Source: a virus. From it: 32,139 nucleotides of DNA. The notes beneath the pieces are model-generated. The model searched no databases and was not told the origin of the DNA. It was given only the letters and a program-made list of their open reading frames with translations. A program made the translations under genes and the position numbers. The stretch lies in IMG/VR virus record IMGVR_UViG_3300045988_095662, positions 1-32,139 of that record. The stretch is one strand, 5' to 3'. Shown here one piece after another: positions 18,948 through 32,139 of this stretch (position 1 is its first letter; every line of letters starts with the position of its first letter).

Positions 18948-20126
18948 CTAACCCGCCGCGCGGCGCTTCGCTTCGCTGAAGAGCTGAGCTGCCGCCGCGT
19001 CGCGTCCGGGCATCAGGTGGCCGTAGATTCGAAGCGTCGTTGCTTCGTCCGCGTGCCCCATGCGCTCAGATAGCGTCTTCAGGTCGCAGCCGTTGGCGAT
19101 AAGCCACGAAGCGTGCGTGTGCCGCAAGCTGTGAAACGTGATCTCTCGCGGCAGTCCGCATGCGTCTCGTATGCGGCTGAAAGCCCGTGAAATCGTCGTT
19201 GGGCGCATGTAAGAGCCGTCTAGCGTCACCAGCGGGCAATCAGCGCCCAAGCGCCCCAGAACGTCGCTCTGAAGCTTCGTGAAGGCATCAATAACCGCGA
19301 TATCGTCTTGCGTAAGCGCGATGTTGCGGCACTTGCGGCCTTTTGTCACGTTGCGGCGATAGGGCTTCTTGCCCTTGCCCTCAATGACGTTGCCGCCGAC
19401 GTGGACGTAAGACATGGCGCGCTTAACGTCGATGCGCTGCACCGCGCAGACCTCGCCAACGCGCATTCCGGTAACGAGCGACAGCCACGAAGCGAAGGCG
19501 TAGACGGCGGCGCGGTAATCGGCTTTCGTCTCAATCTCCTTGCTAAGCGCGCCCTCTAGCTTCCCGTTGAAGCCCTCGAAGTCCCATTCGGTGAGCGCCG
19601 AAGCTTCGTGCCGTTCCGGCGATGGTTTGGCGACGTACACCAGCGGGTTAGCGTCGCAAATGCCAGCGTCTACGAAGTGGTTATAAGCGCCGCGCAAGAA
19701 GTTGTGGACGTTGATAACGCTGTTGCGGCAAAGACCTTGCCCGCCTTCATCCTTCGCCATGAGCAAGCGTTGCTCAAAGCGGTTGAAGTCCATAACGCCA
19801 AGATCGCGTGCGTTTGCGGTCTTCAGATAACGTGCGACGTAGCGGCAAAACAGCCGATAGCTCTTAATGCTGTTCGGGCTTGCGCCGTTGCGCTCCCTCA
19901 GTTGCACGTAATCTTCGAGCAAATCGGTCAAGCGGTCGCTTCTAACCGTTCCGTCAGCCGTCACGTAAGCCGCCCACGTCTCAGCGAGGGCTTGCGCTTC
20001 CTCTTCGGTTGCCGCATTCGGAAACCGCTTGTAAGGGCGAATCGCCTTGCCGTCGATGCTGCGCCCAAGGTACAACCGGCACTCGAAAACGCCATCTGCA
20101 CCGCGCTTGACCTTAACGCCCATCAT
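18948..20126 (-). CDS. Tyrosine recombinase / phage integrase family
   Basis: C-terminal catalytic region ...RVGE...HSLRHTHASWL...GHADEATTLRIYGHL. ATGA overlap with the upstream small ORF. Confidence 0.9.
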   Translation of the reverse strand: MMGVKVKRGADGVFECRLYLGRSIDGKAIRPYKRFPNAATEEEAQALAETWAAYVTADGTVRSDRLTDLLEDYVQLRERNGASPNSIKSYRLFCRYVARYLKTANARDLGVMDFNRFEQRLLMAKDEGGQGLCRNSVINVHNFLRGAYNHFVDAGICDANPLVYVAKPSPERHEASALTEWDFEGFNGKLEGALSKEIETKADYRAAVYAFASWLSLVTGMRVGEVCAVQRIDVKRAMSYVHVGGNVIEGKGKKPYRRNVTKGRKCRNIALTQDDIAVIDAFTKLQSDVLGRLGADCPLVTLDGSYMRPTTISRAFSRIRDACGLPREITFHSLRHTHASWLIANGCDLKTLSERMGHADEATTLRIYGHLMPGRDAAAAQLFSEAKRRAAG

Positions 20127-20344
20127 GACCACTCGCAGTTTTCACGAATCCGCGAAGGGCAGTTATCGTCGTGGCAGTCCGCGCAATCCAACTGCTCTTT
20201 CCTGATGTGGAACTCAACGATTCGGTACTTCAGAGAAAATCGGATGAGCAGCAGCAGGGCATGAGCAAGCGAGTTGGTAAATTGACCGTCCCAGAACGGG
20301 CAAAGTCCGCTCATCGCGCCGCGAACCTCGTACTTGCCGCCCAT
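20123..20344 (-). CDS. Small Cys/His-rich hypothetical protein (73 aa)
   Basis: The ATG lies 1 nt after the upstream stop, and the stop overlaps the recombinase start. Contains CADCHDDNC...C. Confidence 0.45.
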   Translation of the reverse strand: MGGKYEVRGAMSGLCPFWDGQFTNSLAHALLLLIRFSLKYRIVEFHIRKEQLDCADCHDDNCPSRIRENCEWS

Positions 20345-20345
20345 G

Positions 20346-20543
20346 CTACTTGCCAACCTTCATGAACGCGCGCATAACGCAGGTGAGCGCGAACACGACG
20401 AACACGGCAAAGGCGATAAGCCCGAAACCAGCGCCGAAGAACACGCCAACCGCGATGCTCACAACGAGCGCCAGAATGGAAAACAGGACGATTGCGGCGC
20501 ATCCGTAAGCGCCCTGCTCGATCTCTCTATCTTCTTTCAGCAT
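20346..20543 (-). CDS. Small membrane protein (65 aa, 2 predicted TM helices)
   Basis: AGGAGG lies 6 nt upstream of the ATG. The protein has long hydrophobic stretches. Confidence 0.6.
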   Translation of the reverse strand: MLKEDREIEQGAYGCAAIVLFSILALVVSIAVGVFFGAGFGLIAFAVFVVFALTCVMRAFMKVGK

Positions 20544-20553
20544 GTGAAACCTC

Positions 20554-20700
20554 CTAAAACGTGAGCGCTATAAGCGCGAGAAACACTAGAAACAGCGCGA
20601 TCGCCAGAAGCGCTTGATAAGCCAAGTAGCAGACGCACCAAAACGCGGCTACGGTCGCGGCGGTGGCAATGGCGCAAAGTACGATCTGATAGCGCTTCAC
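20554..20700 (-). CDS. Small membrane protein (48 aa)
   Basis: GTG start in a GTGA overlap with the upstream stop, with GGAAGG upstream. The sequence is almost entirely hydrophobic. The 109-aa version overlaps the DUF3310 gene and is Arg-rich. Confidence 0.45.
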   Translation of the reverse strand: MKRYQIVLCAIATAATVAAFWCVCYLAYQALLAIALFLVFLALIALTF

Positions 20701-20978
20701 TTCTTGCCTTCCGTCTCGGCAATCAGGTAGTCGATGCACTGCTTGCACTTCTGCAAGTCCTGAACGCCGTTCTTGCGCCGCCAGCGCCAAAGGTATTTGA
20801 AGGCACAGCCCCACCAGTAGGCAGATTGGGCGGGCAAGGCGTACTGGTCGCCGCTCATCATCGAGCGCATAGCGTCCATGCACTCAATATGGCCGTCGCC
20901 CGCGTAGTGGTCGGGATGCTCCACGGCATCACCGCGCGAAAGCTCGCCAAGGCTCTTCGCGTGCTTCGTCTCAATCAT
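20697..20978 (-). CDS. DUF3310-family phage protein
   Basis: HPDHY...IEC.D...F...AFKYLWRWRRKNG..DL.K pattern typical of DUF3310. ATGA overlap at the start. Confidence 0.65.
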   Translation of the reverse strand: MIETKHAKSLGELSRGDAVEHPDHYAGDGHIECMDAMRSMMSGDQYALPAQSAYWWGCAFKYLWRWRRKNGVQDLQKCKQCIDYLIAETEGKK

Positions 20979-21367
20979 CGGTAGGTAACTCCAATCATCC
21001 ACTCGCAAACCAACTTGTGAAACGCTCTGAGAAATGGCTTAACGTTCGTGTCATCAGCCCAGCCCGCAATGCCTATGAATCCGTCTTCGTTGAACGAGAT
21101 AGCTTCACGGCCTGAGAAGTAGAAGCCGCTAACGCGCAGAAACGCGCTTCTGATTCCTCTACCGCCATCGGCAAGGTTGATTTGCGGCTGGTACTTCTTG
21201 CGATAGCACGGGTGCATTTCCATGTGCTCGCCGTTGCGCTCATGCTGCGCATACTCGATTGCAAGGAATCCTTCGAGCGCTCGAATGTCGTTCGTCGTGA
21301 TCTGCTTATAGGAAAGCTTGCTTGCGAACAGCTCGCGCGCGCCGTCTCGTGTCGTTGGCGCAATCAT
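20975..21367 (-). CDS. Hypothetical protein (130 aa)
   Basis: GGGGGTG lies 5 nt upstream of ATG 21367. Confidence 0.5.
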   Translation of the reverse strand: MIAPTTRDGARELFASKLSYKQITTNDIRALEGFLAIEYAQHERNGEHMEMHPCYRKKYQPQINLADGGRGIRSAFLRVSGFYFSGREAISFNEDGFIGIAGWADDTNVKPFLRAFHKLVCEWMIGVTYR

Positions 21368-21663
21368 GCCGTCACCCCCATTTCGTGCCATTGTTGAAAA
21401 CTCTGTTGAAAACCTGTGGAAAGTCGTTTTTCTGGCGCTCGAATGAGCCGCACAAAACAAGACCGCAAAGAGAAGAAGCAAGAGAAGAAACCTTGCTTGT
21501 AGAGTTGACTAGCAAGCAAGTACGGTGGGTTTTGGTTTTGGTTCAAGGAACCAAAACCCACCTTGTCTTGTTTTGTATTGTTTTGTTTTATGGTTAGGCG
21601 ACCATTTGCGAGTGGGTTTAGCCAACCTAAAACCAGAGGTTTTGCATTGGGTTTGCAAGTCAT
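21364..21663 (-). CDS. Questionable low-complexity Q/N-rich ORF (99 aa) spanning the A+T-rich structured island
   Basis: The ATG lies 7 nt after AGGAGGTG and 5 nt after the replication gene's stop, and its stop forms an ATGA overlap with the next gene. Against this, composition and codon usage are unlike the rest of the genome, and the DNA is full of hairpins and short repeats. Confidence 0.3.
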   Translation of the reverse strand: MTCKPNAKPLVLGWLNPLANGRLTIKQNNTKQDKVGFGSLNQNQNPPYLLASQLYKQGFFSCFFSLRSCFVRLIRAPEKRLSTGFQQSFQQWHEMGVTA

Positions 21664-21667
21664 GTCT

Positions 21668-22123
21668 TTACACCTCCTGACCTGCTGAATCGTTGTTCTT
21701 TGGGTTCTTGCGCGGTCTTCCGCCCTTGCGACCGTTTGCGCGTTGGCGACCGAAATAGAGCGCGTTTTTGAGCATGCGAAAGTTCGTCAAGAAGCCGTCT
21801 TCGTCTCGTTCGAGCAACCCTATATCCAACAGCTCTTCGACAAAGGATTTGCAATCTTCAATCGCCATGTACTCATCGAACGCGCCAGACTGTCCGAAGC
21901 CCAGAATGCCCGCGAGAATAAGCGCGTCTTCCTCCGTCTCGAAAGCGATACGGTGCCCCTTGGTAGCCGCCAGATATTCGCAGAGCCGCCACCAGCGCCC
22001 GTAGCCGTCATAGCCCCGGCGATGAATGAGCCGTTGGCACTTCACGTCTTGTGAAGCGTTTGAGTCGTGCGAGAAGAAGGCCATAGGCTCTTGCGCAGCG
22101 GTCGTTTCCTCCCTTGTAGGCAT
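21668..22123 (-). CDS. DUF4373 / DnaD-like replication initiation protein
   Basis: 151 aa starting at ATG 22123, after AGGAGGTG. FFSHDSNASQD...YG.WW.L.E pattern typical of Lin1244/DUF4373 N-domains. The 288-aa version is an Arg-rich extension. Confidence 0.6.
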   Translation of the reverse strand: MPTREETTAAQEPMAFFSHDSNASQDVKCQRLIHRRGYDGYGRWWRLCEYLAATKGHRIAFETEEDALILAGILGFGQSGAFDEYMAIEDCKSFVEELLDIGLLERDEDGFLTNFRMLKNALYFGRQRANGRKGGRPRKNPKNNDSAGQEV

Positions 22124-22134
22124 GTAGTCACCTC

Positions 22135-22275
22135 CTAACCGTCTTCCTCGTCGCAGATCACGTCTGGCGCGCCCTGCTGGTGCCATCCGTCCCATACGCA
22201 GTGCCCGACTTCGCGGCAGTTCGTCCAAACGTCGCGCCCAACAAACGTGCAGCACGTCTTGCCGCGATGTCGCAT
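22135..22275 (-). CDS. Possible Cys/Trp-rich micro-protein (46 aa)
   Basis: Hand translation gives MRHRGKTCCTFVGRDVWTNCREVGHCVWDGWHQQGAPDVICDEEDG. The stop lies inside the next gene's SD sequence. The ATG is in the third copy of the 16-bp repeat and has only a weak SD. Confidence 0.3.
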   Translation of the reverse strand: MRHRGKTCCTFVGRDVWTNCREVGHCVWDGWHQQGAPDVICDEEDG

Positions 22276-22314
22276 GCTTTCGAACTCGCATGCTTTCGAA
22301 CTCGCATGCTTCGG
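22271..22314. repeat. 16-bp tandem repeat, 2.75 copies (cgcatgctttcgaact)
   Basis: Read directly: units at 22271..22286 and 22287..22302, plus a degenerate partial unit from 22303. Each unit holds two 6-bp palindromes (gcatgc, ttcgaa). Confidence 0.9.
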
Positions 22315-22364
22315 GGTCTGGCATGGGCGGTTCGCCGAAATCGAGCGGCAAGGTTGCCTGTGCG

Positions 22365-22643
22365 CTATTCCTCTTCATCGCTTGAAATGTCGTAGGCAAT
22401 CGAGCTGCCAACGTAGGTGAGCAGCTTTTGCATGTGCTTAACGGTGCTCGGCTCGGGCTTCGCGTCATCTTCAAACAGGGTGTCAACCCATGCGAGGGTG
22501 CCGCGAACGATTGCGAGCGTCGCGCCCATATCAACGTCGAAGCCCTCGCCGGTCTTGGGATTGATAAGCGACATGCTGCCGTTGAGGGCGAAAGTGCCAG
22601 CGCCGACCTTGGCGATAGTCTCGGTAATCTCTTTACGCTTCAT
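22365..22643 (-). CDS. Hypothetical protein (92 aa)
   Basis: AAGGAG lies upstream of ATG 22643, and the start overlaps the end of the upstream gene. Confidence 0.5.
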   Translation of the reverse strand: MKRKEITETIAKVGAGTFALNGSMSLINPKTGEGFDVDMGATLAIVRGTLAWVDTLFEDDAKPEPSTVKHMQKLLTYVGSSIAYDISSDEEE

Positions 22644-23034
22644 CTTTCTTCTCCTTGTCAAACATGGATGTTCTAAGCTCGATGCGAAGCTTCGGGTTGC
22701 GTTCGAGCAGCCAGCGAGCGAGCAAAGAGCTATCGCTGTTGTTGATTCCGTAGGTGTGTTCGTTGCCCTGATCGTCAACGAAGGGCACGCCAACGAGCTT
22801 CGTAGTGCCCTCATAGCGCTGCTTTTCGATGAGGTACTTAGTGGAGACGCGAAGCCCGCGAGCGTCGATTGCGAGCGCTGTAAGCTCGATTTCGCGCAGC
22901 GCCTTTGGGTTCTTCTCGCACCACTCCTTGAACAGGTAACGCCTGTCCGCGACCTTTAGCGGCATCGAGTAGACGCGCTGGCGCTCTTGGCGCATGACGG
23001 CTTCGAGCGGTTGCGTGTAGTTATCGGTGTCCAT
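22633..23034 (-). CDS. Hypothetical early protein (133 aa)
   Basis: GAGGTG lies 5 nt upstream of ATG 23034. Confidence 0.5.
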   Translation of the reverse strand: MDTDNYTQPLEAVMRQERQRVYSMPLKVADRRYLFKEWCEKNPKALREIELTALAIDARGLRVSTKYLIEKQRYEGTTKLVGVPFVDDQGNEHTYGINNSDSSLLARWLLERNPKLRIELRTSMFDKEKKDEA

Positions 23035-23227
23035 GCGGGCACCTCGCTTCACGGCTCATGACGCGGCGCAAGGCCGCTTCTGCTTCCGCCTTGCTCGCCG
23101 ATGGTGCGACGGGTAGCATCTGGCGGCGGTAGACCCTGCCGATGCCCCGGTTTTCCGGCGTGCTCGCGTCTTCCTCAATGCGCGCCATCCAGAAGCCCGC
23201 GTTGTCGCGGTAGACTTCGGCCTTCAT
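23021..23227 (-). CDS. Hypothetical protein (68 aa)
   Basis: ATGA overlap with the upstream membrane protein gene. Confidence 0.4.
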   Translation of the reverse strand: MKAEVYRDNAGFWMARIEEDASTPENRGIGRVYRRQMLPVAPSASKAEAEAALRRVMSREARCPHGHR

Positions 23228-23610
23228 GACCAGATAACGCGCCACAAGACGCGACCAACCACGATGTAAAGCGGGATGAGAAGCCACCAGCCCACGAGAT
23301 CGCACAACCAACCCAGAAGGGCGGCAGCGGCCATAGGGAGGATGCCGGTTAGCGTCAGAGCAGCGAAAGCATACAAAGCCCAGCGCTGCCAGCGCGGCAT
23401 GCGCGCTATACTGTCTTCTGTCAATTGGTAAGCCCCTTTTGACACGCCCGTTCGGTGCTGCAACACCGGGCGGGCATCCTTCTTTGCATCCACGCGGCAA
23501 CGAGAGTTGTAATCGCGTGGAATAACTGCCGTTGCGCGGCATCTAGGCCGCATGATTCGCGCATTCGTAAAACCACCCCCAAAACCACCGGTTTTAATCT
23601 CGGTTTTCAT
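23224..23610 (-). CDS. Hypothetical protein with C-terminal membrane segment (2 TM)
   Basis: GGAGG lies upstream of ATG 23610. The C-terminal 58 aa are strongly hydrophobic. An internal start at 23400 is possible. Confidence 0.45.
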   Translation of the reverse strand: MKTEIKTGGFGGGFTNARIMRPRCRATAVIPRDYNSRCRVDAKKDARPVLQHRTGVSKGAYQLTEDSIARMPRWQRWALYAFAALTLTGILPMAAAALLGWLCDLVGWWLLIPLYIVVGRVLWRVIWS

Positions 23611-23626
23611 CCTTGGAAACCTCCGT

Positions 23627-23830
23627 TTACTTTTGGAACTCAACAAACCCCAGAAGCTCATTGGGCATGCAGTCGTACAACCTGCAAAGCTCAACCAGCT
23701 TCAGAGCCGATGGGGCGGTTTTCCCGTTCTCCCAACTAAGAAGCGTCGTGATGGAAATATCCAACTGCGTAGCGGCTTGCTGAGCAGTTAGAGCAGCCCG
23801 CTCACGTGCTTCTCTATACATTGCAACCAT
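23627..23830 (-). CDS. Cro-like XRE-family HTH regulator (first gene of the early operon)
   Basis: HTH segment LTAQQAATQLDISITTLLSWENG. AGGAGGTG lies upstream of ATG 23830. It is divergent from the repressor gene. Confidence 0.8.
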   Translation of the reverse strand: MVAMYREARERAALTAQQAATQLDISITTLLSWENGKTAPSALKLVELCRLYDCMPNELLGFVEFQK

Positions 23831-23864
23831 GTTCACCTCCTAATAAGCCCTAGCGATTTCAAAG

Positions 23865-23912
23865 TAAGAGGAATCGCTTACTCACGAGAAAGATAGTAAG
23901 CGGTTCCTCTTA
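23865..23912. promoter_or_regulatory. Operator candidates in the divergent switch region
   Basis: 17-bp inverted repeat with one mismatch: taagaggaatcgcttac (23865..23881) and gtaagcggttcctctta (23896..23912). A possible -10 hexamer tacaat lies at 23934..23939. Confidence 0.6.
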
Positions 23913-23971
23913 GTCTGTCAACGAATTTTTGTGTACAATAATCGGTGCAGATTACTAGAAAGAGGTCTACT

Positions 23972-24217
23972 ATGAGTTCAGACGATGAAGATATCCGCAA
24001 GCTCATTGGTTCACGAATAGCAATCGCACGAAAGGCGGCAGGGCTGAATCAAGAAGAGTTAGCCGCTGCCGTTGGTGTTCATAAGCAAACTATTTCGCGC
24101 TACGAACGCGGCGTGCTCGTACCAGATGCCAACGAAATATGCGCGATGGTATCCACGCTCAATTGTTCGGCTGACTTCCTTCTTGGTTTTTCAGACACGT
24201 TGACCATACGCGGTTAA
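23972..24217 (+). CDS. cI-like XRE-family HTH repressor (81 aa)
   Basis: HTH segment LNQEELAAAVGVHKQTISRYERG. AAGAGG lies 7 nt upstream of the ATG. It leads the plus-strand lysogeny arm. Confidence 0.8.
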   Translation: MSSDDEDIRKLIGSRIAIARKAAGLNQEELAAAVGVHKQTISRYERGVLVPDANEICAMVSTLNCSADFLLGFSDTLTIRG

Positions 24218-24254
24218 ATAAGCCGTGGAATCCTAGAATGAAAGGCGAAGTGCG

Positions 24255-25190
24255 GTGAATAGACTTGAAAAGCTTCGGGCAATCAGCCCAAGCGACATTC
24301 TTATTTTCGATACCGAAACAACGGGTCTTAATGTCGGCGGCTCGCGCCGTGATGAAATACTGTCACTCGCTGTCATGAATCTTGACGGAGACGTTCTGTT
24401 TTGCGATCTATTGAGGCCATCAGAACGCAAAAAGTGGCCGAAAGCAGAAAGCATAAACGGCATATCTCCGTCTATGGTGAAGGACAAGAAGACGATTATA
24501 GAAAGGCGCTCGGAAATCGAACCGATTTTCAAGAGCGCTAAGCTATACGTCGCATACAATGCCGATTTCGACCTAGGCTTTCTTAGAGCTTCCGGTTTGG
24601 ATATACCAGATCGTCAGACGTTTGACGTGATGAAAGAGTTTGCGAAGATACATGGGGCATGGGACGGCACGCATGATGAATGGTCATGGTGCAAGTTAGA
24701 AGATTGCGCGGCGTTTTACGGATATCGTAACTTCGAAGCTCACGACGCGCTGAACGACGTTAAGGCAACCGCGCATTGCTTCAATTCGATTCTCGATGAT
24801 TTTCTTTTCGGTGAGCCGCGCCGCCGACCGAAGCTGGTTAAGGATGAGTTCGGCGATTCGTATTTCGAGTATGGCGACGAAGAGTTTAGAAGCATCGTTT
24901 GCAGCGGTTATGCTGCCGCATTGTCCGAAACTGGCAAACACACTAACTACGCGCCATCATCTAACGAGCTTCAGCAGCAAGCCAAGGATGAAAAAGACAG
25001 TGCAGATAACCAACCGGCCAGAAACCATGCCGTGTCAGATCAGCGGAGCACCAATAAAGCACTGGTGTTAATCGGTTCCGTTTGCGCATTGATTGGTCTT
25101 GCAATCACTGTTTTAGGTGCTGCAATCGTCGGTGTTCCAATTGCTATATTGGGCGCTTTGCTTGCCGTAGGTGCAAGGGGAAGGAAATAG
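24255..25190 (+). CDS. DEDDh (DnaQ-like) 3'-5' exonuclease fused to a C-terminal double-TM anchor
   Basis: ExoI FDTETTG, ExoII AYNADFD, ExoIII HDALNDV. The C-terminal ~40 aa are hydrophobic (ALVLIGSVCALIGLAITVLGAAIVGVPIAILGALLAVGA). GTG start. Confidence 0.8.
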   Translation: MNRLEKLRAISPSDILIFDTETTGLNVGGSRRDEILSLAVMNLDGDVLFCDLLRPSERKKWPKAESINGISPSMVKDKKTIIERRSEIEPIFKSAKLYVAYNADFDLGFLRASGLDIPDRQTFDVMKEFAKIHGAWDGTHDEWSWCKLEDCAAFYGYRNFEAHDALNDVKATAHCFNSILDDFLFGEPRRRPKLVKDEFGDSYFEYGDEEFRSIVCSGYAAALSETGKHTNYAPSSNELQQQAKDEKDSADNQPARNHAVSDQRSTNKALVLIGSVCALIGLAITVLGAAIVGVPIAILGALLAVGARGRK

Positions 25191-25282
25191 AAAACCCTGC
25201 GCGGCTTCTTGGCGGTCGGCGCGCAGGGCAAGTGCAAAGAACGAAGCGCATTAGCGCACTCGCTCTAAGGGGTGATTTTAGC

Positions 25283-26860
25283 ATGGTGAAGAACAGAGCA
25301 GCCATATACGCGCGCTTCAGCTCGCACAATCAGCGCTCTGAGAGTATCGAGATACAAGTTGAGAACTCGCGCGCATACTGCGAGCGCGAGGGCTTGCAGG
25401 TCGTGCGGGAATACTGCGACTATGCGCAGACAGGGCGCAACGTCAACCGCGCTGAGTTCCAGCGCATGATGAACGATGCGAAGCTAGGTCTATTTGATTT
25501 TGTGGTGATTTACAAGGTGACGCGCATAATGCGCAACCGCGATGAAATGGCCTTGGCTCGAATCATGCTGCGCAAGGCCGGTGTTGAAATACTGTACGCG
25601 GGCGAAGAGATCGCGAGCGGTTCGAGCGGTGTGCTGCAACTCGGCATGCTCGAAGTTCTCGCGGAATGGGAAAGCGCTATCGACAGTGAGCGCATAAGAG
25701 ACGGAATCCAGAAGAACGCCGCTCGGTGCCTTGCTAACGGGCATTCGCTATACGGTTGGGATATCGTAGACGGTCGTTATAGCGTCAATGAGCGCGAAGC
25801 GGCGCTTATGCGCAAGATGAAGAACATGCTGTTTTCCGGCCATTCGGTAGCCGATATCGTGCGGGCGCTCGAAGGTGAGAAGACACGCAATGGAAAGCCC
25901 TTCAACCAAGACAAGGTGACTAAGCTTCTGCGAAGGGTGCAGAACGGCGGAACATATAGCTATGCCGGTCATGTGGTAGAAGGTGGGATGCCGGGTCTTT
26001 GGCCGCAAGTAGAACAAGACATGATAGAAAGCGTCCTTAACGACAGGCACCGCCCGCGCCGCAAGGTAGATTCGTCTAAAGAGTTTCCGCTTTCCGGCAA
26101 ACTCTACTGCACGAAATGCGGTATGCCAATGGCGGGAATGAGTGGAACATCTAAGACAGGCAAAGCCTATCACTACTACCGTTGCCGCAAGTGCAGAAGA
26201 ACAGTGCGCCGTGATCTGATAGAAGATGCCGTAGTAGATATGACGCTGCAAGCCGTTGCGCGCGACGATGTGCGACAGCGGATAGCGCAAGGAATGGCGC
26301 TCTACCAATCAGAGCAAGAAGAGACGAAGCCAGAAAGCTACTATCTGAAGAAAGAGCTTAGGCGCATTGATGCGGCGTTCGAACGCATCTGGCAAGCGAT
26401 AGAAGATGGGATTGCACCACCGGGCGGAAAAGAGCGCACGGACGAACTGAAGTGCCGCAAAGCGGAAATCGAAGCGCAGCTGCGCATAGCAGAGCGCGAC
26501 GAATCTATGTCGTTTGGCGTTGACGAACTCATGCTGTGGCTCGATGAGATCGCAACGGAACTAACGCCGCTCGATATCCTCAACAAGTTTGTTCGGTTCG
26601 CTGAGATTGACGGCAAGAGCAACCGCATACGCGTTTACTTTGCCTTCGATAAGCACGGTGACGGCTTTTCGCCTAACAGCGCGGACAAAGGCGAACACCT
26701 CTATGAAGAGAGGTGTTCGCCTAATTCTACGCTGGTGGAGCTTATGAGAAAAACGGCGAACTCCACAAGCACCGCCAACCGCGCAGCTATCCAGCTTGAT
26801 ACTTGCATCGTTAGGGTATCGAAAAACTGGTTTGTTGTCGTTGGCACGTGTCAAAAATAG
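25283..26860 (+). CDS. Large serine recombinase (probable phage integrase)
   Basis: N-terminal resolvase domain (AAIYARFSSHNQ...). Zinc-ribbon Cys pairs (CTKCG...CRKC). C-terminal coiled coil. AAGGGGTG lies upstream of ATG 25283. Confidence 0.9.
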   Translation: MVKNRAAIYARFSSHNQRSESIEIQVENSRAYCEREGLQVVREYCDYAQTGRNVNRAEFQRMMNDAKLGLFDFVVIYKVTRIMRNRDEMALARIMLRKAGVEILYAGEEIASGSSGVLQLGMLEVLAEWESAIDSERIRDGIQKNAARCLANGHSLYGWDIVDGRYSVNEREAALMRKMKNMLFSGHSVADIVRALEGEKTRNGKPFNQDKVTKLLRRVQNGGTYSYAGHVVEGGMPGLWPQVEQDMIESVLNDRHRPRRKVDSSKEFPLSGKLYCTKCGMPMAGMSGTSKTGKAYHYYRCRKCRRTVRRDLIEDAVVDMTLQAVARDDVRQRIAQGMALYQSEQEETKPESYYLKKELRRIDAAFERIWQAIEDGIAPPGGKERTDELKCRKAEIEAQLRIAERDESMSFGVDELMLWLDEIATELTPLDILNKFVRFAEIDGKSNRIRVYFAFDKHGDGFSPNSADKGEHLYEERCSPNSTLVELMRKTANSTSTANRAAIQLDTCIVRVSKNWFVVVGTCQK

Positions 26861-26923
26861 CAATTTCCGGTGTTTGCAAAACACCAGATGGGCGGCTTGC
26901 TGTAAGCCCGTCTAACGCCAGAA

Positions 26924-26954
26924 AGCGGGGCACCCCTTGTCATGGTACCCCGCT
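26924..26954 (-). terminator. Terminator hairpin between the convergent lysin and recombinase genes
   Basis: 11-bp stem (one G-U pair on the minus strand), 9-nt loop, then TTTCTGGCGTT on the minus strand. Confidence 0.55.
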
Positions 26955-26960
26955 TGAACA

Positions 26961-28025
26961 CTAATAAGAAAGCTTCTGGCCGGGGTAGATCGTATAAGGT
27001 GCCCCAATGCCGTTCTTGCTTGCGATGGTGTGCCAGTCGATACCGAGCGAAGCGCCAATCTCGCTGAGCGTGTCGCCGCTCTTGACGGTGTAGACGCGCG
27101 CAGCGCCAACGCCCGCCCTCTGGTTGACGATTGCCTGAACCTCGCTGAAGCGGTCGCCCAGAACGTCGCTGCGCGTCGGCACAACGCCGAACATTCCGCG
27201 TTCCACATCATCTGCGAGCTGAGAAGCGGAAGCGCCGTCAATGTAGTTGATGAGGTCTTGCACCTCTTGGTAACGGTCGCCGAGCTTTTCGCGGCGCTCA
27301 TCGTCAACGCCATACTCGCCGCGCATGACCGCTGCTGCAAGGTCAAGCGTCGTGCCCTCCGGCGAAGGCTCGGCGACCTCTGCGGGCGGAACGTCGGGCG
27401 CTGCCGCGCCGGACGGGTTGGCAAACTTACCCCACGCTTCGCGCGTCATATAGGCGATATCGAGATCAAGCGGCGCGTTGAAGCCATCGAGACGGCCATT
27501 CGACGTGTACTGGTGGATTGCGCAGCTACCCCAAGCGCCAAAGCCGCCATCGGGAAGCCACGGCGAAGACTGGTAGCCGGTTCGGTTGTTGTTGGCGTAC
27601 TGCGCAACCCAGAGCGCGTGATTCGGCGCGATCTGAGACCAATCCTCTTCGGTGCAAACGCTACGGCTCATGTAGACGATGCAGCGAACGCCGGTCTGAT
27701 CGTAGACGTAATCGAGGAACTGCTTTGCCTTGTCGGTTCCGATGCGCCCGTACATCTCATAATCGAGAACGGGAATGCCGTTGCCGAAGTAGTTACGGCA
27801 GCTTGCGACGAAGTGCTTAGCCTGAGCGATGGGGTCTTCTCCGTTCATGAAGTGATAGAAGCCCCAGAGCTTGCCGAGCTTGATAGCCTGCTGAATCCAC
27901 GGGTCGCAGGTGTTGTGAACGATGGTGGTTCCCTCGGTCGCCTTGCAGATAACGAAATCGCAAGGCACCTGCGCGAGGTCAAGCCCTCGCTGGTAGTTGG
28001 AAATATCAATGCCGTTGAGTGCCAT
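26961..28025 (-). CDS. Endolysin: GH25 muramidase + CW_7 (Cpl-7-like) repeats + LysM
   Basis: N-terminus GIDISNYQ...DFVICKATEG typical of GH25. Two ~40-aa repeats of the form RGEYG..ERR..LGDRY..VQ. C-terminal YTVKSGDTLSEIG...IYPGQKL (LysM). Confidence 0.9.
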   Translation of the reverse strand: MALNGIDISNYQRGLDLAQVPCDFVICKATEGTTIVHNTCDPWIQQAIKLGKLWGFYHFMNGEDPIAQAKHFVASCRNYFGNGIPVLDYEMYGRIGTDKAKQFLDYVYDQTGVRCIVYMSRSVCTEEDWSQIAPNHALWVAQYANNNRTGYQSSPWLPDGGFGAWGSCAIHQYTSNGRLDGFNAPLDLDIAYMTREAWGKFANPSGAAAPDVPPAEVAEPSPEGTTLDLAAAVMRGEYGVDDERREKLGDRYQEVQDLINYIDGASASQLADDVERGMFGVVPTRSDVLGDRFSEVQAIVNQRAGVGAARVYTVKSGDTLSEIGASLGIDWHTIASKNGIGAPYTIYPGQKLSY

Positions 28026-28716
28026 AGAAGCCCCCTCTGATGCAGTAGAAGTAATGAAAATCGACCTGCTCTAGCTCTTCGAGCGTGAAGGCGCGCGCGG
28101 AGTTCCCAGCGCTCGCCGGGTCGCGTATCCAGTAGCCGTCATCGTCGGCGCGCCAGATAAGCACGACGTGCCCGCCGTAGTCCCTATCGCCGAGCGTTCC
28201 GCTCATGCCAGCGAAGGCAAGCCACCCATCGGACACGTTTTGAAGGACGGGTGCGAGATCGTAAGAAATCGGCGTGCTCTCGATGCCGTATTCCGGGTAA
28301 TGCTCGGCAATCCACGCGCAGAACTTGCCGGGGTCGTTAACGCCATCGGTAAGGCACGTGTCACCCACGAACGATGCGAGCGTGAGCGGCGTAATGTCCT
28401 GAAGCGTCATGTATTTGACAGCCATAGCGGCGCATGTAAGGCCGCAGCCGTGGTAGCCGATGGTGCCGCCCGCATATGGTATGTAGTCCCATTGCGGGTC
28501 GGTCTGAAGCCATATCGGCATGCTGTTACCCTCGGCAATCGGCCTATCGGCAACGATTGCTAGGCGGTCTTCCTCAGCGGCAGCGTAGCCCTCTTCGCGC
28601 GCTTCAGCGAGCGCGCCCGCGTCGCTCTCGATATGGCCAACGATGAGCCAGCCGCAGAAGAGCATTGACGCGAGCGCGCCGGAAAGCACGAGGGCGACAG
28701 CCTTTAGCCTACTCAT
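28006..28716 (-). CDS. Signal-anchored papain-like (peptidase C39-like) cysteine peptidase, probable second lytic enzyme
   Basis: N-terminal TM segment (AVALVLSGALASMLFCGWLIV). GCGLTCAAMA catalytic-Cys context and a downstream GGH. It lies between the holin and the GH25 lysin. Confidence 0.65.
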   Translation of the reverse strand: MSRLKAVALVLSGALASMLFCGWLIVGHIESDAGALAEAREEGYAAAEEDRLAIVADRPIAEGNSMPIWLQTDPQWDYIPYAGGTIGYHGCGLTCAAMAVKYMTLQDITPLTLASFVGDTCLTDGVNDPGKFCAWIAEHYPEYGIESTPISYDLAPVLQNVSDGWLAFAGMSGTLGDRDYGGHVVLIWRADDDGYWIRDPASAGNSARAFTLEELEQVDFHYFYCIRGGFYGTQRH

Positions 28717-28969
28717 CGCGCTTCGGCTCGGTGTAGGTGAGCGCTTGCGCGGAATCGCCAACGCCCGCCGTGGTCGGGTCGGTCACGATGCCAAGAATCG
28801 CGAGCACGGCGAAAAGCGCGTTGATGATCGCGGCCAACTGCTCGTTCAGAACTCCAAAGTCCCACTGGTAGCCGAACGGCGCGGCGACCACCTGCACGAG
28901 CAGCAGGACGGCGGGAATGAGAGTAAGCCAGAACGTCTTGTTCTTGATTCGTGCAGTGAAGTTAATCAT
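28709..28969 (-). CDS. Holin
   Basis: 86 aa with AAGGAG 7 nt upstream of the ATG. Two hydrophobic helices and a charged C-terminus. It is immediately upstream of the lytic enzymes. Confidence 0.75.
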   Translation of the reverse strand: MINFTARIKNKTFWLTLIPAVLLLVQVVAAPFGYQWDFGVLNEQLAAIINALFAVLAILGIVTDPTTAGVGDSAQALTYTEPKRDE

Positions 28970-28970
28970 T

Positions 28971-29417
28971 TCAGTTCTCCTTTTCATAGATGAGGTCTAC
29001 GCGGTCGTAGATGTGATCGACCTTGTTTGCCATGTCGTGCGAGTGCTCGCGCGATTCCCTGATTTCGTCGTGCAGCGCCGCCGTGGAAGCCCTGATAGAT
29101 TCCATAGCTGCTTGCAGCCCTTCCGAAATGTTGTTGCTACGCTCCATCTGCGCAGCGATGCGGCCTTCCATTTCCGAGCGCTCGCGGTCGCGCTGCGCGC
29201 GCTCGTTGAGTTCGTCGCGCTTACGCTCTTCGCGCTTCAGCTCTAGCTCTGCCTGTCGCGCTGCGTTTCGCTCTTCAAGCTCCGCCTTGCGCTCGTTGTT
29301 GCGCTGGTACTCGTTAAGCAACTGCTTTGCGAGGATTCCGAAGCCGATAGCAACGAGGAACGCGAAGAACCATTCGGCACCGAAGGCCGCTGCATGGTCT
29401 AAAACGCTCTCCGCCAC
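28971..29417 (-). CDS. Membrane-anchored coiled-coil protein (lysis-module accessory)
   Basis: GTG start after GGAGGG. N-terminal TM segment followed by a long E/R/K-rich helix. Confidence 0.5.
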   Translation of the reverse strand: MAESVLDHAAAFGAEWFFAFLVAIGFGILAKQLLNEYQRNNERKAELEERNAARQAELELKREERKRDELNERAQRDRERSEMEGRIAAQMERSNNISEGLQAAMESIRASTAALHDEIRESREHSHDMANKVDHIYDRVDLIYEKEN

Positions 29418-29418
29418 G

Positions 29419-29865
29419 TCAGCCCTCCGTCACCTCTCGCCAGACGGTTTCGGTTCCGACAGCCCCCGGCTCCCAGACGTTGTTAGCAACGAGGGATTCC
29501 CAGACCTTGCCGTTGTGCTTCACGCGGGCACCGAGCGGGTAGGGATTCGTAGAATCGGGCTGCACCCATTCGGGCACTTCCTCTGTCGGCGTGTCGGGCG
29601 TGCCCGCTTCAAGCACCTTCGCCCAAAGGCTCGGCGCTGCCGTTGGTGCCCAATCGGTCTGCGACGTGTGCGCCTGAAGGCAAACGTAAATCTCGCCCTC
29701 ATAGCTCGCGCGCTCGCCCTCGGCGTAGGCGTGGCCGTTGCCGTCCCACGCGGCGAAGAGCGCGGCGGCTCGGCTCGCCACGTCGGTTGAGAGAGACGGC
29801 GCTTGTGTCTTGTAAATCGCGATGATCGCGCGCACCATGCTCTCTTCGTCTTCGGTGAGTGCCAT
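29419..29865 (-). CDS. Protein with two CBM5/12-like carbohydrate-binding repeats
   Basis: Two aromatic-spaced repeats: W..G..Y..GE...Y.G..Y.C...H.S...W.P....SLW and Y.LG..V.H.GKVW.S...N.WEPG. Confidence 0.55.
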   Translation of the reverse strand: MALTEDEESMVRAIIAIYKTQAPSLSTDVASRAAALFAAWDGNGHAYAEGERASYEGEIYVCLQAHTSQTDWAPTAAPSLWAKVLEAGTPDTPTEEVPEWVQPDSTNPYPLGARVKHNGKVWESLVANNVWEPGAVGTETVWREVTEG

Positions 29866-29890
29866 TTGTTGCCCCTTTCTCTCAGTAACG

Positions 29891-29916
29891 AAAAAGCCCC
29901 CGCGTCTGCGAGGGCT
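29891..29916 (-). terminator. Rho-independent terminator closing the DGR cassette
   Basis: On the minus strand, AGCCCUCGC-AGAC-GCGGGGGCU is followed by UUUUCGUU. It lies 28 nt after the RT stop. Confidence 0.75.
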
Positions 29917-29943
29917 TTGGTACCTGATGGTGTGTGTTCGCTC

Positions 29944-31053
29944 TTAGCTGAAGAGCTGCTTATAGAGCGCGTCCATGCGCCTTACCGTCTCGTGAGCGTC
30001 AAGCCGCTTCATGCCTCCGCGCCACGATTGGTAAGACTGGTTGACTTGCTCGACGGTCATAACGCCGCGAGCGACCAGCGCCGCTTGCTTCTTCAGCTTG
30101 CGCCGCTGTCGCGTCACGGAAGAGCGGCAAGGGCGAACAACCACCTTTTCACCCTCGCCATATGAAAACCTCTTCTTCAGGAACACGAAGCCGCGCGACA
30201 GCTTCACTACGCGCGTCTTCTTGCGGTTGATGATGATTCCCAGATCGTCGCAGAGCGCTTCGATGCGCGAAAGCGCGTCCCAAAGCGTCTGCTTGTCAAG
30301 CGCGATGCAATAGCTATCGTCCATGTAGCGACCGCTCGCGAGGATGCCCGGAAGCGAAAGCATCAGATGGTCTATCGGCGACGGCAAGGCCACCGCTAAA
30401 ATCTGGTTCGGCTCGCTGCCAAGACCAAGCCCGCGCGCGCCGTGAGCGTCTATCTGGTCGCCCATGACGCGCTTAACGCGCTCATCGTCAATGGCTCTGT
30501 CGATGATGCGCTTGCAAGCGTCGTGGTCGATGTTCGCGAAATAGTCCGAGAAATCGACCTGCAAGATGTAGCCTTCCGTCCCGTGCTTTCGCCGGTGGGC
30601 TACAAGCTGACGCTTCATGCGCTTGATTGCGTACTCGGTGCCGCGCCCCTTCACGTTTGCGGCGCATCCCTCTGTCAGGGTAGGCCAGATCGCAGGTGCG
30701 AGCGCGTGACGGCTTAAAGACTTCTGTATGACACGCTCCGAGAAGTGGACAGAGCAGATATGACGAAGCTTTCCGCGCTCGAAAAGGTCAAACTCGATGA
30801 AGCCGCGCCGGAAGTCAGCGCCCGTGAGCAGGTCGCGGCGCGCCCGCATGATGTTTGGCATGACGCGCCCCATGTAGCGCTGAACGCTTGCCTTCCAGCG
30901 AACGCCCGCAGCAGCGCCGTTCGCCGCACTGTATAGGTTATCGAGGTCTGCGACGGCTTCTAGCGTGCATCCTTCGATGCGCCTAGCCCTATTCTCCGCG
31001 CGCTTGGCATCTCGCCTTGCGCGGCGTGCTGCGCGTCGCTCTTCAGAGTTCAT
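29944..31053 (-). CDS. DGR reverse transcriptase (369 aa)
   Basis: YMDD box encoded at 30327->30316. Also LQVDFSDYF and other RT palm motifs. Start chosen at ATG 31053 (MNSEERR...) because the longer ORF would run through the spacer toward TR. Confidence 0.92.
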   Translation of the reverse strand: MNSEERRAARRARRDAKRAENRARRIEGCTLEAVADLDNLYSAANGAAAGVRWKASVQRYMGRVMPNIMRARRDLLTGADFRRGFIEFDLFERGKLRHICSVHFSERVIQKSLSRHALAPAIWPTLTEGCAANVKGRGTEYAIKRMKRQLVAHRRKHGTEGYILQVDFSDYFANIDHDACKRIIDRAIDDERVKRVMGDQIDAHGARGLGLGSEPNQILAVALPSPIDHLMLSLPGILASGRYMDDSYCIALDKQTLWDALSRIEALCDDLGIIINRKKTRVVKLSRGFVFLKKRFSYGEGEKVVVRPCRSSVTRQRRKLKKQAALVARGVMTVEQVNQSYQSWRGGMKRLDAHETVRRMDALYKQLFS

Positions 31054-31421
31054 GAGGGCACCCCGCGCGGCTTGCAGTCGGCATCCAGCAGCCGCTTGAC
31101 GGTTGACCATGAAACGCGGTCGGAAGCCGAGAACCGCGCCATGCAAGCAGCGAACGGCAACCGTCGCGGGGTGCATATTTACGGGCGCATGCCCGATGGT
31201 CGCCCCTTCCTTCCTCAAATGCACGGCGCGCGGCGCTTACGGCCGCGCGGTCTGGCAAAGCTTGGGAATCACGGCAGCGGGCGTATCCAGTCGTTCGTCG
31301 GCGCGTTGTTGTTGGCATTGCCGTTGTTGTTGACATTGCACGCGTTGGACGCAGAACCACCCATGACAGACCGCAGCCACCAATTGACGCGACGATTTCC
31401 AAGGGACAACTCGCGAACATT
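31054..31421 (-). ncRNA. DGR template RNA region (TR plus 5' and 3' flanks / spacer)
   Basis: Non-coding stretch between avd and the RT. It holds TR and a GC-rich spacer with an 8-bp hairpin (31227..31249). Confidence 0.6.
31265..31393 (-). repeat. DGR template repeat (TR), 129 bp
   Basis: Aligns without gaps to 31920..32048 (offset 655). It is adenine-rich on the minus strand, with 11 AAY codons in the VR frame. Confidence 0.92.
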
Positions 31422-31832
31422 TTACCCCTTTCCTATGAGTTTCACTCCAGCGCGAGCGCCCTTTATCAGCTTAATGTCGCTGTCGATTCGGTCTAGGATT
31501 CCTTCGAGCCGCGCGGCCTTGATGGGAAGCCCCATAGTCAGAAGGCTTTGCATGTCTTGGTAGAGATGGTTTAGGTCTGCCAGCGCAAGCGTCATGTAGC
31601 GCTTCCGCTCATCGACGTTGCGCGGCGTGTTCGGATAGAATGCGTCGGCCTTAACCAGATTGAAGACAACGCTTCGCGCCGTCTCTGCCATAGGCACCGC
31701 GAAGATGAATCGGTAGGATTTCGGAACGTCGCGCGACGTTACAAGGCGCGTCACGTCGTTTCTGATCGCAACCGCCGTGTTGAAATACTCGAAAGAGCTT
31801 AGGTTGCGGTTGCGCATGTATACGCCGCTCAC
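31422..31832 (-). CDS. avd: Accessory variability determinant (Avd-like four-helix-bundle protein)
   Basis: 136-aa helical basic protein between the target gene and TR. AGGAGG lies 9 nt upstream of GTG 31832. Size and position match Avd. Confidence 0.75.
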   Translation of the reverse strand: MSGVYMRNRNLSSFEYFNTAVAIRNDVTRLVTSRDVPKSYRFIFAVPMAETARSVVFNLVKADAFYPNTPRNVDERKRYMTLALADLNHLYQDMQSLLTMGLPIKAARLEGILDRIDSDIKLIKGARAGVKLIGKG

Positions 31833-31862
31833 TTCGCGGAACCTCCTAATCTGCGACGGTTA

Positions 31863-31885
31863 GGCGCATGCGCAAGGCATGCGCC
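31863..31885 (-). promoter_or_regulatory. GC-rich hairpin downstream of VR (candidate DGR target-recognition cruciform)
   Basis: ggcgcatgc (31863..31871), 5-nt loop, gcatgcgcc (31877..31885). It lies 23 nt after the target stop codon. Confidence 0.6.
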
Positions 31886-31908
31886 AGCGCGGTACTGTGT
31901 ACGGCTTA

Positions 31909-32139
31909 TCAGCCTATGAGGAAGCACGGCAGCGGGCGTACCCAGCGGTCCGCCGGCGCGGTGTGGTTGGCAGTGCCGTTGCTGCCGACAGGGCACGCGC
32001 CGGACGCAGAACCACCCATGACAGACCGCAGCCACCAAATGACGCGACCGCCCGCGATGCGGCTTGCCGTGTCGCTGAAGATGGGGAACTGGCTATCGAA
32101 GCCGACAGAGTAGCCCTTGGTTCCCCATACCGGACAGCC
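31909..32139 (-). CDS. DGR target protein, C-terminal part including VR (32041..32139 duplicates 1..99)
   Basis: The frame is continuous with 1..771. Hand translation: ...GGRVIWWLRSVMGGSASGACPVGSNGTANHTAPADRWVRPLPCFLIG, with stop TGA at 31911..31909. Confidence 0.85.
   Translation of the reverse strand, partial: GCPVWGTKGYSVGFDSQFPIFSDTASRIAGGRVIWWLRSVMGGSASGACPVGSNGTANHTAPADRWVRPLPCFLIG
31920..32048 (-). repeat. DGR variable repeat (VR), 129 bp, codons ~255-298 of the 300-codon target
   Basis: 17 mismatches to TR, 16 of them at TR adenines on the minus strand. Confidence 0.92.
32041..32139. repeat. Terminal direct repeat, copy 2 (identical to 1..99)
   Basis: Direct comparison. Confidence 0.97.

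Follow-up and report, generated by a model that had tools for sequence, protein, structure and literature searches.

What is an exonuclease gene doing between the candidate immunity repressor and the integrase of a temperate phage, and why would its product end in what appears to be a membrane anchor? The question is raised by the IMG/VR virus record IMGVR_UViG_3300045988_095662, analysed here over a stretch of 32,139 nucleotides (nt; hereafter the window), in which an open reading frame (ORF) at 24255..25190 on the plus strand, beginning with GTG, encodes a protein of 311 amino acids (aa). An earlier note on this DNA had singled the ORF out as the sole gene between a repressor and a serine integrase, on the repressor's strand, and that description is accurate: no other substantial ORF separates the helix-turn-helix (HTH) repressor gene from the serine integrase gene, and all three lie on the plus strand. 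The best explanation overall, which we prefer tentatively and with slightly less than even confidence, is that the protein is a membrane-tethered DEDDh 3'-5' exonuclease that would be made in lysogens and would act as a single-gene superinfection-exclusion or defence factor. This explanation, drawn from sequence, structural modelling and analogy, is carried by the architecture of the protein, its intact catalytic residues and predicted hairpin, the position of its gene in the immunity operon, the recurrence of that position, and the independent anchoring of its relatives.

Architecture of the exonuclease and its predicted membrane anchor

The window protein is a genuine DEDDh superfamily member, in agreement with the earlier description of a full DnaQ-like exonuclease domain. 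Specifically, the Pfam model RNase_T (PF00929) matches aa 16-175 (E=5.7e-17; 63.2 bits against a cut-off of 24), and the DEDDh motifs are complete: Exo I, D-x-E, at D19/E21 (FDTETTG), Exo II at D106 (YNADFD), and Exo III, H-x4-D, at H163/D168 (HDALND). D19, E21, H163 and D168 show no variation across 67 sequences, in at least 90% of which D106 is also conserved, and the enzyme is presumably catalytically active. The GTG start at 24255 is supported by the finding that 31 of 31 aligned homologues begin at the equivalent position. The AlphaFold2 model has a mean predicted local distance difference test score (pLDDT) of 85.6, with values above 90 in the core through about residue 220.

Between this core and the C-terminus a polar linker of ~90 aa had been described, which needs correction. 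Residues 183-228 (~45 residues) are conserved and folded; their consensus, FGEPRRRPK...DEFG..Y.DYGDEE, includes the basic motif EPRRRPK, and AlphaFold2 models them as a beta-hairpin (193-205) and a helix (219-228) packed against the catalytic core at pLDDT >90. It is residues 229-265 (~37 residues) that form the linker proper, with predicted disorder (pLDDT <50 at 229-235 and 237-265) and with length and sequence that vary among homologues. The third element, a C-terminal hydrophobic segment of ~40 aa that was expected to form two helices, was recovered as such: residues 269-307 are a 39-residue uninterrupted hydrophobic stretch with 19-residue Kyte-Doolittle means of up to 2.67, which AlphaFold2 models as a two-helix hairpin (helices 268-286 and 290-307). 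Basic residues flank this stretch on both sides (K268 and R308-G-R-K311) and an N-terminal signal sequence is absent from the window exonuclease, so that, by the positive-inside rule, the exonuclease domain and both ends of the hairpin would lie in the cytoplasm. Among homologues the hydrophobicity of the anchor is kept as its sequence diverges, which argues that the anchor is under selection.

The most telling comparison comes from an exhaustive HMMER search over 1.84 billion cluster representatives, which returned 4,397 matches at E<=1e-3 and 250 at E<=1e-30. When the nearest 150 were taken as 50%-identity clusters, C-terminal anchors were present in 64 (in addition to the window's own cluster) and N-terminal anchors, each a single transmembrane (TM) segment or a hairpin, in 12 (P0151, P0161, P0170, P0180, P0195, P0198, P0211, P0219, P0224, P0235, P0245 and P0262). 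These mutually unrelated anchors range from single tail-anchors and hairpins to a TM2 domain and, at the N-terminus, TM segments or hairpins; in the anchored relatives inspected, flanking lysines and arginines would again give the enzyme a cytoplasmic location. Further out in the family, nearly every relative is a soluble protein of 170-200 aa. That unrelated anchors have been gained repeatedly and independently, at either end of the protein, is the strongest sequence-level argument that tethering is itself a selected property. A search with the C-terminal 136 residues alone against 5.8 billion sequences returned a single irrelevant HTH protein of 88 aa and missed the exonuclease's own family, an uninformative outcome that we attribute to a query both short and compositionally biased.

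Structural comparison bears on the likely substrate. The best Foldseek matches, all at probability 1.0, are the S. aureus DinG-exo domain, ExoX with 3'-overhang DNA, PolC-exo and Cas2-DEDDh, with ISG20-type RNases at lower rank; since the top matches are DNA 3'-5' exonucleases, the modelled fold makes DNA more likely than RNA as the substrate. By sequence, a search of the PDB gave just PolC-exo and the epsilon subunit, and those weakly. UniProt/BFVD contains an identical protein from a human gut virome under the bare name 'DEDDh', and relatives are called '3'-5' exonuclease' or 'DNA polymerase III epsilon subunit-like'. In PADLOC and Pfam scans the window protein matched RNase_T, RNase_H_2, generic DEDDh models and the N-terminal part of PDC-S48. 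The profile and structure searches proposed at the outset therefore yielded a DEDDh domain and fold, not a named defence family at full length.

Several specific assignments were considered and rejected. Firstly, a DNA polymerase III epsilon or PolC proofreader is contradicted by NCBIfam, in which all 26 models score far below their cut-offs (the best epsilon model 42.7 bits against 196). Secondly, PDC-S48, itself flagged as a single-gene defence candidate, shares an N-terminal DEDDh domain with the exonuclease family and differs in its C-terminal parts; of its profiles of 411 and 512 positions, the window protein matches positions 8-168 only and ten relatives reach ~199 at most. Thirdly, a CRISPR-associated enzyme of the Cas2-DEDDh kind is suggested by a domain-level match to PDLC01247, but the neighbouring genes are a repressor and an integrase, not cas1 and cas2. 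Finally, the diDNases are small soluble enzymes of the DEDDy/NrnC type from Actinomycetes and Clostridia, whose sole shared trait is adjacency to an HTH gene (PMC11706625); the motif here is DEDDh, PF01612 was not reported, and the PDB sequence search gave no diDNase structures. The window protein therefore falls outside SNIPE, Mpr, PDC-S48, the diDNases and the epsilon proofreaders, a defining feature of each having been tested for and found absent.

Recurrence of the exonuclease in prophage immunity regions

The gap between the repressor and exonuclease genes is 37 nt and contains no terminator-like site, so the two are probably co-transcribed, and the earlier placement of the gene in the lysogeny arm is supported. 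The arrangement is not peculiar to the window. Close homologues (59-99% identity) are always preceded by cro on the minus strand and the repressor on the plus strand, and followed by a serine integrase on the plus strand and then by host genes. More broadly, a slot composed of repressor, exonuclease, integrase and prophage end recurs in at least 10 prophage backbones with differing repressor and integrase types; the repressors are either HTH-only (76-126 aa) or S24/LexA-like (166-218 aa), and the integrases are of the serine or the tyrosine kind. Because the gap between repressor and exonuclease is 3-50 nt throughout the loci compared (L001, L169, L170, L172, L027, L029, L175 and L177), the pair appears to constitute a conserved operon.

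The range of backbones is best appreciated from individual loci. HTH repressors precede the exonuclease in L169 (126 aa; a prophage with an early region of the RecT/YqaJ/RusA type, followed downstream by host folD, fhs and ruvABC), in L172 (125 aa; the contig ends within the next gene), in L027 from Atopobiaceae (120 aa; an exonuclease of 324 aa with two TM segments, then a serine integrase that is 30% identical) and in L177 (109 aa; an exonuclease of 250 aa and a recombinase-like gene). Repressors with an S24 domain occupy the same position in L170/L024 (166 aa; downstream serine integrase 38% identical), in L029, an Actinomycetes metagenome-assembled genome (MAG; HTH-S24 repressor of 209 aa, anchored exonuclease of 419 aa, tyrosine-integrase-like gene downstream), in L175 (HTH-S24 repressor, exonuclease of 233 aa, serine integrase) and in L173, where an anchored exonuclease of 389 aa is likewise followed by a serine integrase. 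In L173 a 302-aa DUF2806 protein (5991-6899) is encoded between the S24 repressor and the exonuclease, which suggests that the slot has room for more than a single cargo gene.

Whether exonucleases with TM segments are enriched beside prophage repressors and integrases, as the earlier note had wondered, was addressed with 324 complete exonuclease ORFs from the fetched loci, grouped at 70% identity into 182 clusters, whose neighbours were classified with home-made hidden Markov models (HMMs). They are enriched. An HTH or S24 gene lies within 150 nt upstream on the same strand in 13 of 24 C-terminally anchored clusters, and in 11 of these 24 it is accompanied by a recombinase directly downstream; the corresponding counts for 139 soluble clusters are 4 and 4, and for 19 N-terminally anchored clusters from viral contigs, in which anchors were called from the longest possible ORFs, 5 and 5. 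Comparison of the C-terminally anchored and soluble clusters by Fisher test gives 8e-10 for the upstream HTH/S24 gene and 6e-8 for its combination with a downstream recombinase, p-values that are optimistic and overstate independence, as genes adjacent to anchored members seeded the HMMs, and as the clusters are phylogenetically related. The contrast is large, and anchored members are strongly associated with the repressor/integrase slot across backbones.

Two further contexts are informative. Collinsella prophages (L010-L017, L091-L095), compared with window 21668-25190, are 96-98% identical in a Lin1244-like early gene and 84-88% in the exonuclease (96-97% and 85-88% for L010-L017 alone), as against 60% in the repressor and 56% in cro. 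This suggests that these phages are heteroimmune to the window phage with the exonuclease retained, and such a mosaic speaks for exchange at the immunity genes. A soluble relative of 176 aa (P0048) is found in L179 (1-7531) beside a type I restriction-modification system (HsdR, HsdS, HsdM), AbiH and an integrase-like gene, in what resembles a mobile-element defence island, a context that favours a role in defence.

Proposed mechanism, precedents and alternatives

In the mechanism that we propose, the exonuclease would be expressed in lysogens through the repressor operon, and its C-terminal hairpin and flexible tether of ~37 residues would hold a DnaQ/ExoX-like enzyme under the membrane, on the cytoplasmic face. 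Within this thin shell free 3' ends would be met only on entering DNA, as when a linear phage genome is injected leading end first. Nibbling of that 3' end, for instance by removal of a cohesive 3' overhang, would leave a genome that fails to circularise or lies open to further degradation; that trimming such an overhang would suffice is a suggestion of our own. The circular chromosome and the prophage integrated in it would be spared, offering no free ends at the membrane.

Each element of this mechanism has a precedent in rexAB and CarolAnn 43/44, Mpr, SNIPE, Fc02 Olg1/Sie1 or Ppl, the last being a single-gene defence based on a 3'-5' exonuclease (PMC12904381). Among them is Mpr of M. smegmatis, which makes outdated the earlier view that no membrane-anchored exonuclease was known as a defence system. 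Mpr is a membrane-anchored 3'-5' DNA exonuclease required for resistance to phage D29; resistance requires both nuclease activity and the anchor, and the enzyme has been proposed to degrade the linear genome on entry (PMC12596739). It resembles the present case in coming from an actinobacterium. However, Mpr is unrelated in sequence to the window protein and is a chromosomal host gene product with an N-terminal TM segment, a nuclease region unlike known nucleases and a C-terminal DUF4352, whereas the window protein is prophage-encoded and has a DEDDh domain, a C-terminal hairpin and, in the Pfam scan, no DUF4352.

SNIPE of E. coli, a single GIY-YIG nuclease bound to the inner membrane on its cytoplasmic side, cuts DNA as it is injected and owes its discrimination of self from non-self to its location; without its TM segment it is toxic, and its homologues have highly diversified membrane-targeting regions (10.1101/2025.11.03.685801). 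This diversification parallels the unrelated anchors of the exonuclease clade. SNIPE differs in being an endonuclease with an N-terminal anchor and a DUF4041 domain that binds DNA and tape-measure protein; neither GIY-YIG nor DUF4041 was found in the window protein by Pfam and PADLOC scans, no partner-recognition domain is evident in it beyond the 45-residue extension, and its membrane localisation is predicted, with the anchor at the opposite end.

A third precedent, Olg1/Sie1 of Pseudomonas phage Fc02, is a prophage gene product with a DEDDh-like domain that confers superinfection exclusion upon expression (PMC9936078). It differs in being found in the soluble fraction and in being encoded by an overlapping gene, at another genomic position, in a Mu-like Pseudomonas phage. 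A tblastn search with the exonuclease against 50,697 phage records gave 26 matches, none of them from a Pseudomonas phage, in a collection not confirmed to contain Fc02. The fold and catalytic motifs are shared with ExoX, DnaQ and Cas2-DEDDh, of which ExoX and Cas2-DEDDh trim DNA 3' overhangs, but those enzymes are soluble, serve housekeeping or CRISPR adaptation, and lack both an anchor and the 183-228 extension. Finally, exclusion genes are co-transcribed with the repressor, and one product is a membrane protein, in lambda cI-rexA-rexB and in Gordonia phage CarolAnn 45-44-43 (PMC6426606). These are two-gene abortive systems based on ion channels and have no nuclease; their position is nonetheless that of the exonuclease, which lies on the same strand immediately downstream of the repressor, with no intervening terminator-like site, an arrangement conserved in other prophages. 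Our literature searches yielded no description of a membrane-anchored DEDDh/DnaQ exonuclease in prophage immunity regions. Our verdict, from sequence, is that the exonuclease appears to be an undescribed DEDDh variant of the membrane-tethered-nuclease idea, with another catalytic fold, an anchor at the other end and a prophage location.

A number of points weigh against a role in superinfection exclusion. One is a chromosomal homologue (38% identity, 309 aa) that has a hairpin anchor and a basic tail and occurs in 16 contigs (L005-L008, L019; 10001-10930 in L005), where its neighbours are a TMEM175-type channel gene on one side and PTS EIIA, LPG synthase and RecQ genes on the other, and where no phage or defence gene occurs at distances up to 10 kb. 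It is the one clear chromosomal homologue, and the earlier concern that homologues might be mostly chromosomal housekeeping genes does not hold for the anchored clade. Other anchored members depart from the slot: L131 lies among structural genes, and L020, L242, L302 and L306 have no HTH gene or recombinase nearby. The optimism of the p-values given above belongs here too, as does the fact that TM calls were hydrophobicity-based throughout. No PADLOC model spans the full length of the protein, the matches being confined to the generic DEDDh domain and, in PDC-S48, to the first 170-200 positions. RNA is a possible substrate, given that the fold is also matched by ISG20-like RNases, and a distributive exonuclease may be too slow to halt injection.

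The chromosomal homologue and the RNase matches lend themselves to an alternative in which the target is other incoming DNA, for example single-stranded DNA taken up by natural transformation or conjugation, or membrane-proximal nucleic acids more generally, including membrane-associated RNA; the gene would then be one of lysogenic conversion and might shield the prophage from recombinational replacement. Any entering 3' end would be reachable from the cytoplasmic face, and a homologue of the same architecture in a non-mobile context suggests a cellular role. What makes this alternative unlikely is the strong link to prophage immunity operons, which is the pattern of anti-phage genes, together with the finding that no competence or conjugation genes lie near the exonuclease in the loci compared.

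A distinctly unlikely possibility is that the protein acts by abortive or triggered defence, the tether restraining the exonuclease until an infection signal, such as membrane perturbation or proteolysis of the linker, releases it to degrade phage and host nucleic acids alike. No sensor or protease partner is conserved beside the exonuclease in the loci compared, the linker is very short in many homologues (proteins of 233-250 aa), and an intact circular chromosome would offer such an enzyme few substrates. The disordered, variable linker between enzyme and anchor is what such a mechanism would use, and there are parallels for it both in SNIPE, toxic once its TM segment is removed (10.1101/2025.11.03.685801), and in the slot itself, which in lambda and CarolAnn houses abortive systems (PMC6426606).

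Very improbable, in our estimation, is the role implied by most database names and by PHROG 192 ('DNA polymerase exonuclease subunit'), that of a proofreading accessory in phage replication or repair. The PHROG match is strong (1.4e-43), names of the type 'DNA polymerase III epsilon subunit-like' abound, and there is weak similarity to epsilon and PolC-exo; yet the NCBIfam scores given above fall far short, the window ORFs that were scanned yielded no DNA polymerase, the gene shares the repressor's strand and sits at the end of the prophage, opposite the early operon with its SSB and replication genes, and a membrane anchor is ill-suited to a replisome subunit. Least probable of all is counter-defence, in which a nucleic acid made by a host immune system, or used by it as a signal, would be degraded; the anti-defence genes of related prophages (Acb2/Tad1-like in L001, Lar-like in L169) and the ability of DEDD enzymes to act on very short substrates (PMC11706625) might be cited in its favour, but such genes are normally early lytic rather than part of a repressor operon, tethering would have no obvious rationale, and diDNase structures were unmatched in the PDB sequence search.

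Explanations outside those considered retain a small but appreciable likelihood. Membrane-tethered superinfection exclusion nevertheless remains the explanation that we prefer, and it may be extended from the window protein to its relatives. In this wider form, a large undescribed DEDDh clade with recurrent unrelated anchors would represent widespread single-gene superinfection exclusion by temperate phages of gut Actinobacteria and Firmicutes, with expression from the repressor operon, discrimination of self from non-self by location, and 3'-end trimming that blocks circularisation; this extension is possible, though on balance we regard it as doubtful.

The phage, its lysogeny module and the possible wider meaning of tethering

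The window is a circularly closed temperate-phage genome of ~32,040 bp in its excised form, with an exact terminal direct repeat of 99 nt (1-99 and 32041-32139). Terminase, portal, capsid and tail genes lie on the minus strand and the lysogeny module on the plus strand; the endolysin is of the GH25/CW_7/LysM type. A nucleotide-level search with window 20000-32139 against the 50,697 phage records gave zero matches. Collinsella aerofaciens, an Olsenella sp. and an Eggerthellaceae MAG carry integrated prophages that are near-identical or related, so a member of the gut Coriobacteriia can be taken as the host. In related prophages an HNH gene adjoins the terminase genes, an arrangement typical of HK97-like cos phages, and the early regions include anti-defence-like genes: an Acb2/Tad1-hairpin protein (L001 5632-5847) and a Lar-like restriction alleviation protein (L169 174-512).

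Features of the immunity and integration region, including the three parts of the exonuclease (window coordinates)
Feature	Position	Strand	Basis or remarks
cro-like HTH gene, 67 aa	23627..23830	-	Pfam HTH_3 1.3e-10; ATG 23830 with Shine-Dalgarno sequence GGAGGTG upstream; divergent from repressor
Divergent regulatory region	23860..23942		Inverted repeat of 23 nt and promoter-like hexamers facing each other, in a regulatory stretch of ~140 nt
Immunity repressor candidate, 81-aa HTH_3 protein without S24 domain	23972..24217	+	Pfam HTH_3 7.4e-15; PHROG transcriptional repressor families
Exonuclease residues 1-228, DEDDh core and conserved folded extension	24255..24938	+	Pfam RNase_T; invariant catalytic columns; AlphaFold2
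Exonuclease residues 229-265, disordered polar/acidic linker	24939..25049	+	Low pLDDT; gappy, poorly aligned columns
Exonuclease residues 266-311 and stop codon, predicted membrane anchor	25050..25190	+	Kyte-Doolittle profile; AlphaFold2 helices
G+C-rich inverted repeat (CCCTGCGCG, 16 nt, CGCGCAGGG)	25195..25228	+	Between exonuclease stop and integrase start
Large serine integrase, ATG start	25283..26860	+	Pfam Resolvase, Recombinase, Zn_ribbon_recom; phrog_95 integrase 1.1e-87
attP region within 3' end of integrase ORF	26677..26745		Homology to integrated L009, L089 and L002 ends at 26740-26744

Homologues of the repressor (80-82 aa) are present in L001/L002, as are 67-aa homologues of cro in the equivalent position; the ORF list offers alternative GTG starts at 23836 for the cro-like gene and 23945 for the repressor. 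Between the two divergent genes lies an inverted repeat (23860-23882 / 23895-23917; 23 nt, 87% complementary, 12-nt spacer) with AGTAAG/CTTACT half-sites, which overlaps both promoter-like sites and is likely the operator. The promoter-like hexamers, on the minus strand 23921->23893 and on the plus strand 23915->23942, match consensus at 10/12 and 9/12 positions, and may from these matches function as promoters. Downstream of the exonuclease, the G+C-rich inverted repeat is possibly an attenuator or a terminator without a U tract; it was rejected as a convincing terminator, the RNA fold of 25186-25285 (-37.4 kcal/mol) having z = -1.9 and no U tract.

The phage attachment site can be placed in the 3' end of the integrase gene because homology to integrated copies stops there, and a 26-nt inverted repeat (26677-26702 / 26709-26734) adjoins the breakpoint. 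It follows that the exonuclease ranks second to last among the genes of the integrated prophage and that the last ~39 integrase codons are altered upon integration. A second recombinase, a tyrosine 'Phage_integrase' protein of 394 aa, is encoded in the early region (18948-20132, minus strand) and is conserved together with the serine integrase in L001, L002 and L172.

Base composition had been taken as a sign that the exonuclease was acquired as a moron. The A+T-rich tract is real: the G+C content of the exonuclease gene is 0.487, the lowest among all long ORFs, against 0.583 for the window, and its G+C content at third codon positions is 0.50, compared with about 0.72-0.76 in structural genes. 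However, the other genes of the lysogeny module are low as well (repressor 0.496, cro 0.51, integrase 0.537); the tract is the whole module rather than a single-gene insertion. With the entire cro-repressor-exonuclease-integrase block low, the moron inference is weak, and single-gene acquisition, as argued from G+C, was rejected.

The window also contains a diversity-generating retroelement on the minus strand (29944-32048), composed of a reverse transcriptase ORF (29944-31224; RVT_1), an Rfam RT-2 RNA (31038-31260; 100.5 bits), a 129-nt template repeat (31265-31393) and a variable repeat (31920-32048) in which 16 of 17 mismatches fall at template adenines (A-to-N). The variable repeat sits at the 3' end of a gene that crosses the contig junction towards BppU-like tail genes. 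A retron was rejected as the explanation of the reverse transcriptase and RT-2 RNA because of this repeat pair with adenine-specific mismatches.

For the exonuclease, the existing precedents lower the element of surprise, and the breadth of the anchored clade together with its link to immunity operons raises its value. The recurrent, independent gain of unrelated anchors amounts to a natural experiment that favours tethering as a selected property. If the proposed function is confirmed, the widespread labels 'DNA polymerase III epsilon subunit' and 'DNA polymerase exonuclease subunit' would be corrected, and the principle of the membrane-tied nuclease, known from SNIPE, Mpr and Zorya, would come to include the very common fold of DEDDh exonucleases, exclusion encoded by prophages, and the abundant yet genetically poorly studied gut Coriobacteriia (Collinsella, Olsenella, Eggerthellaceae).

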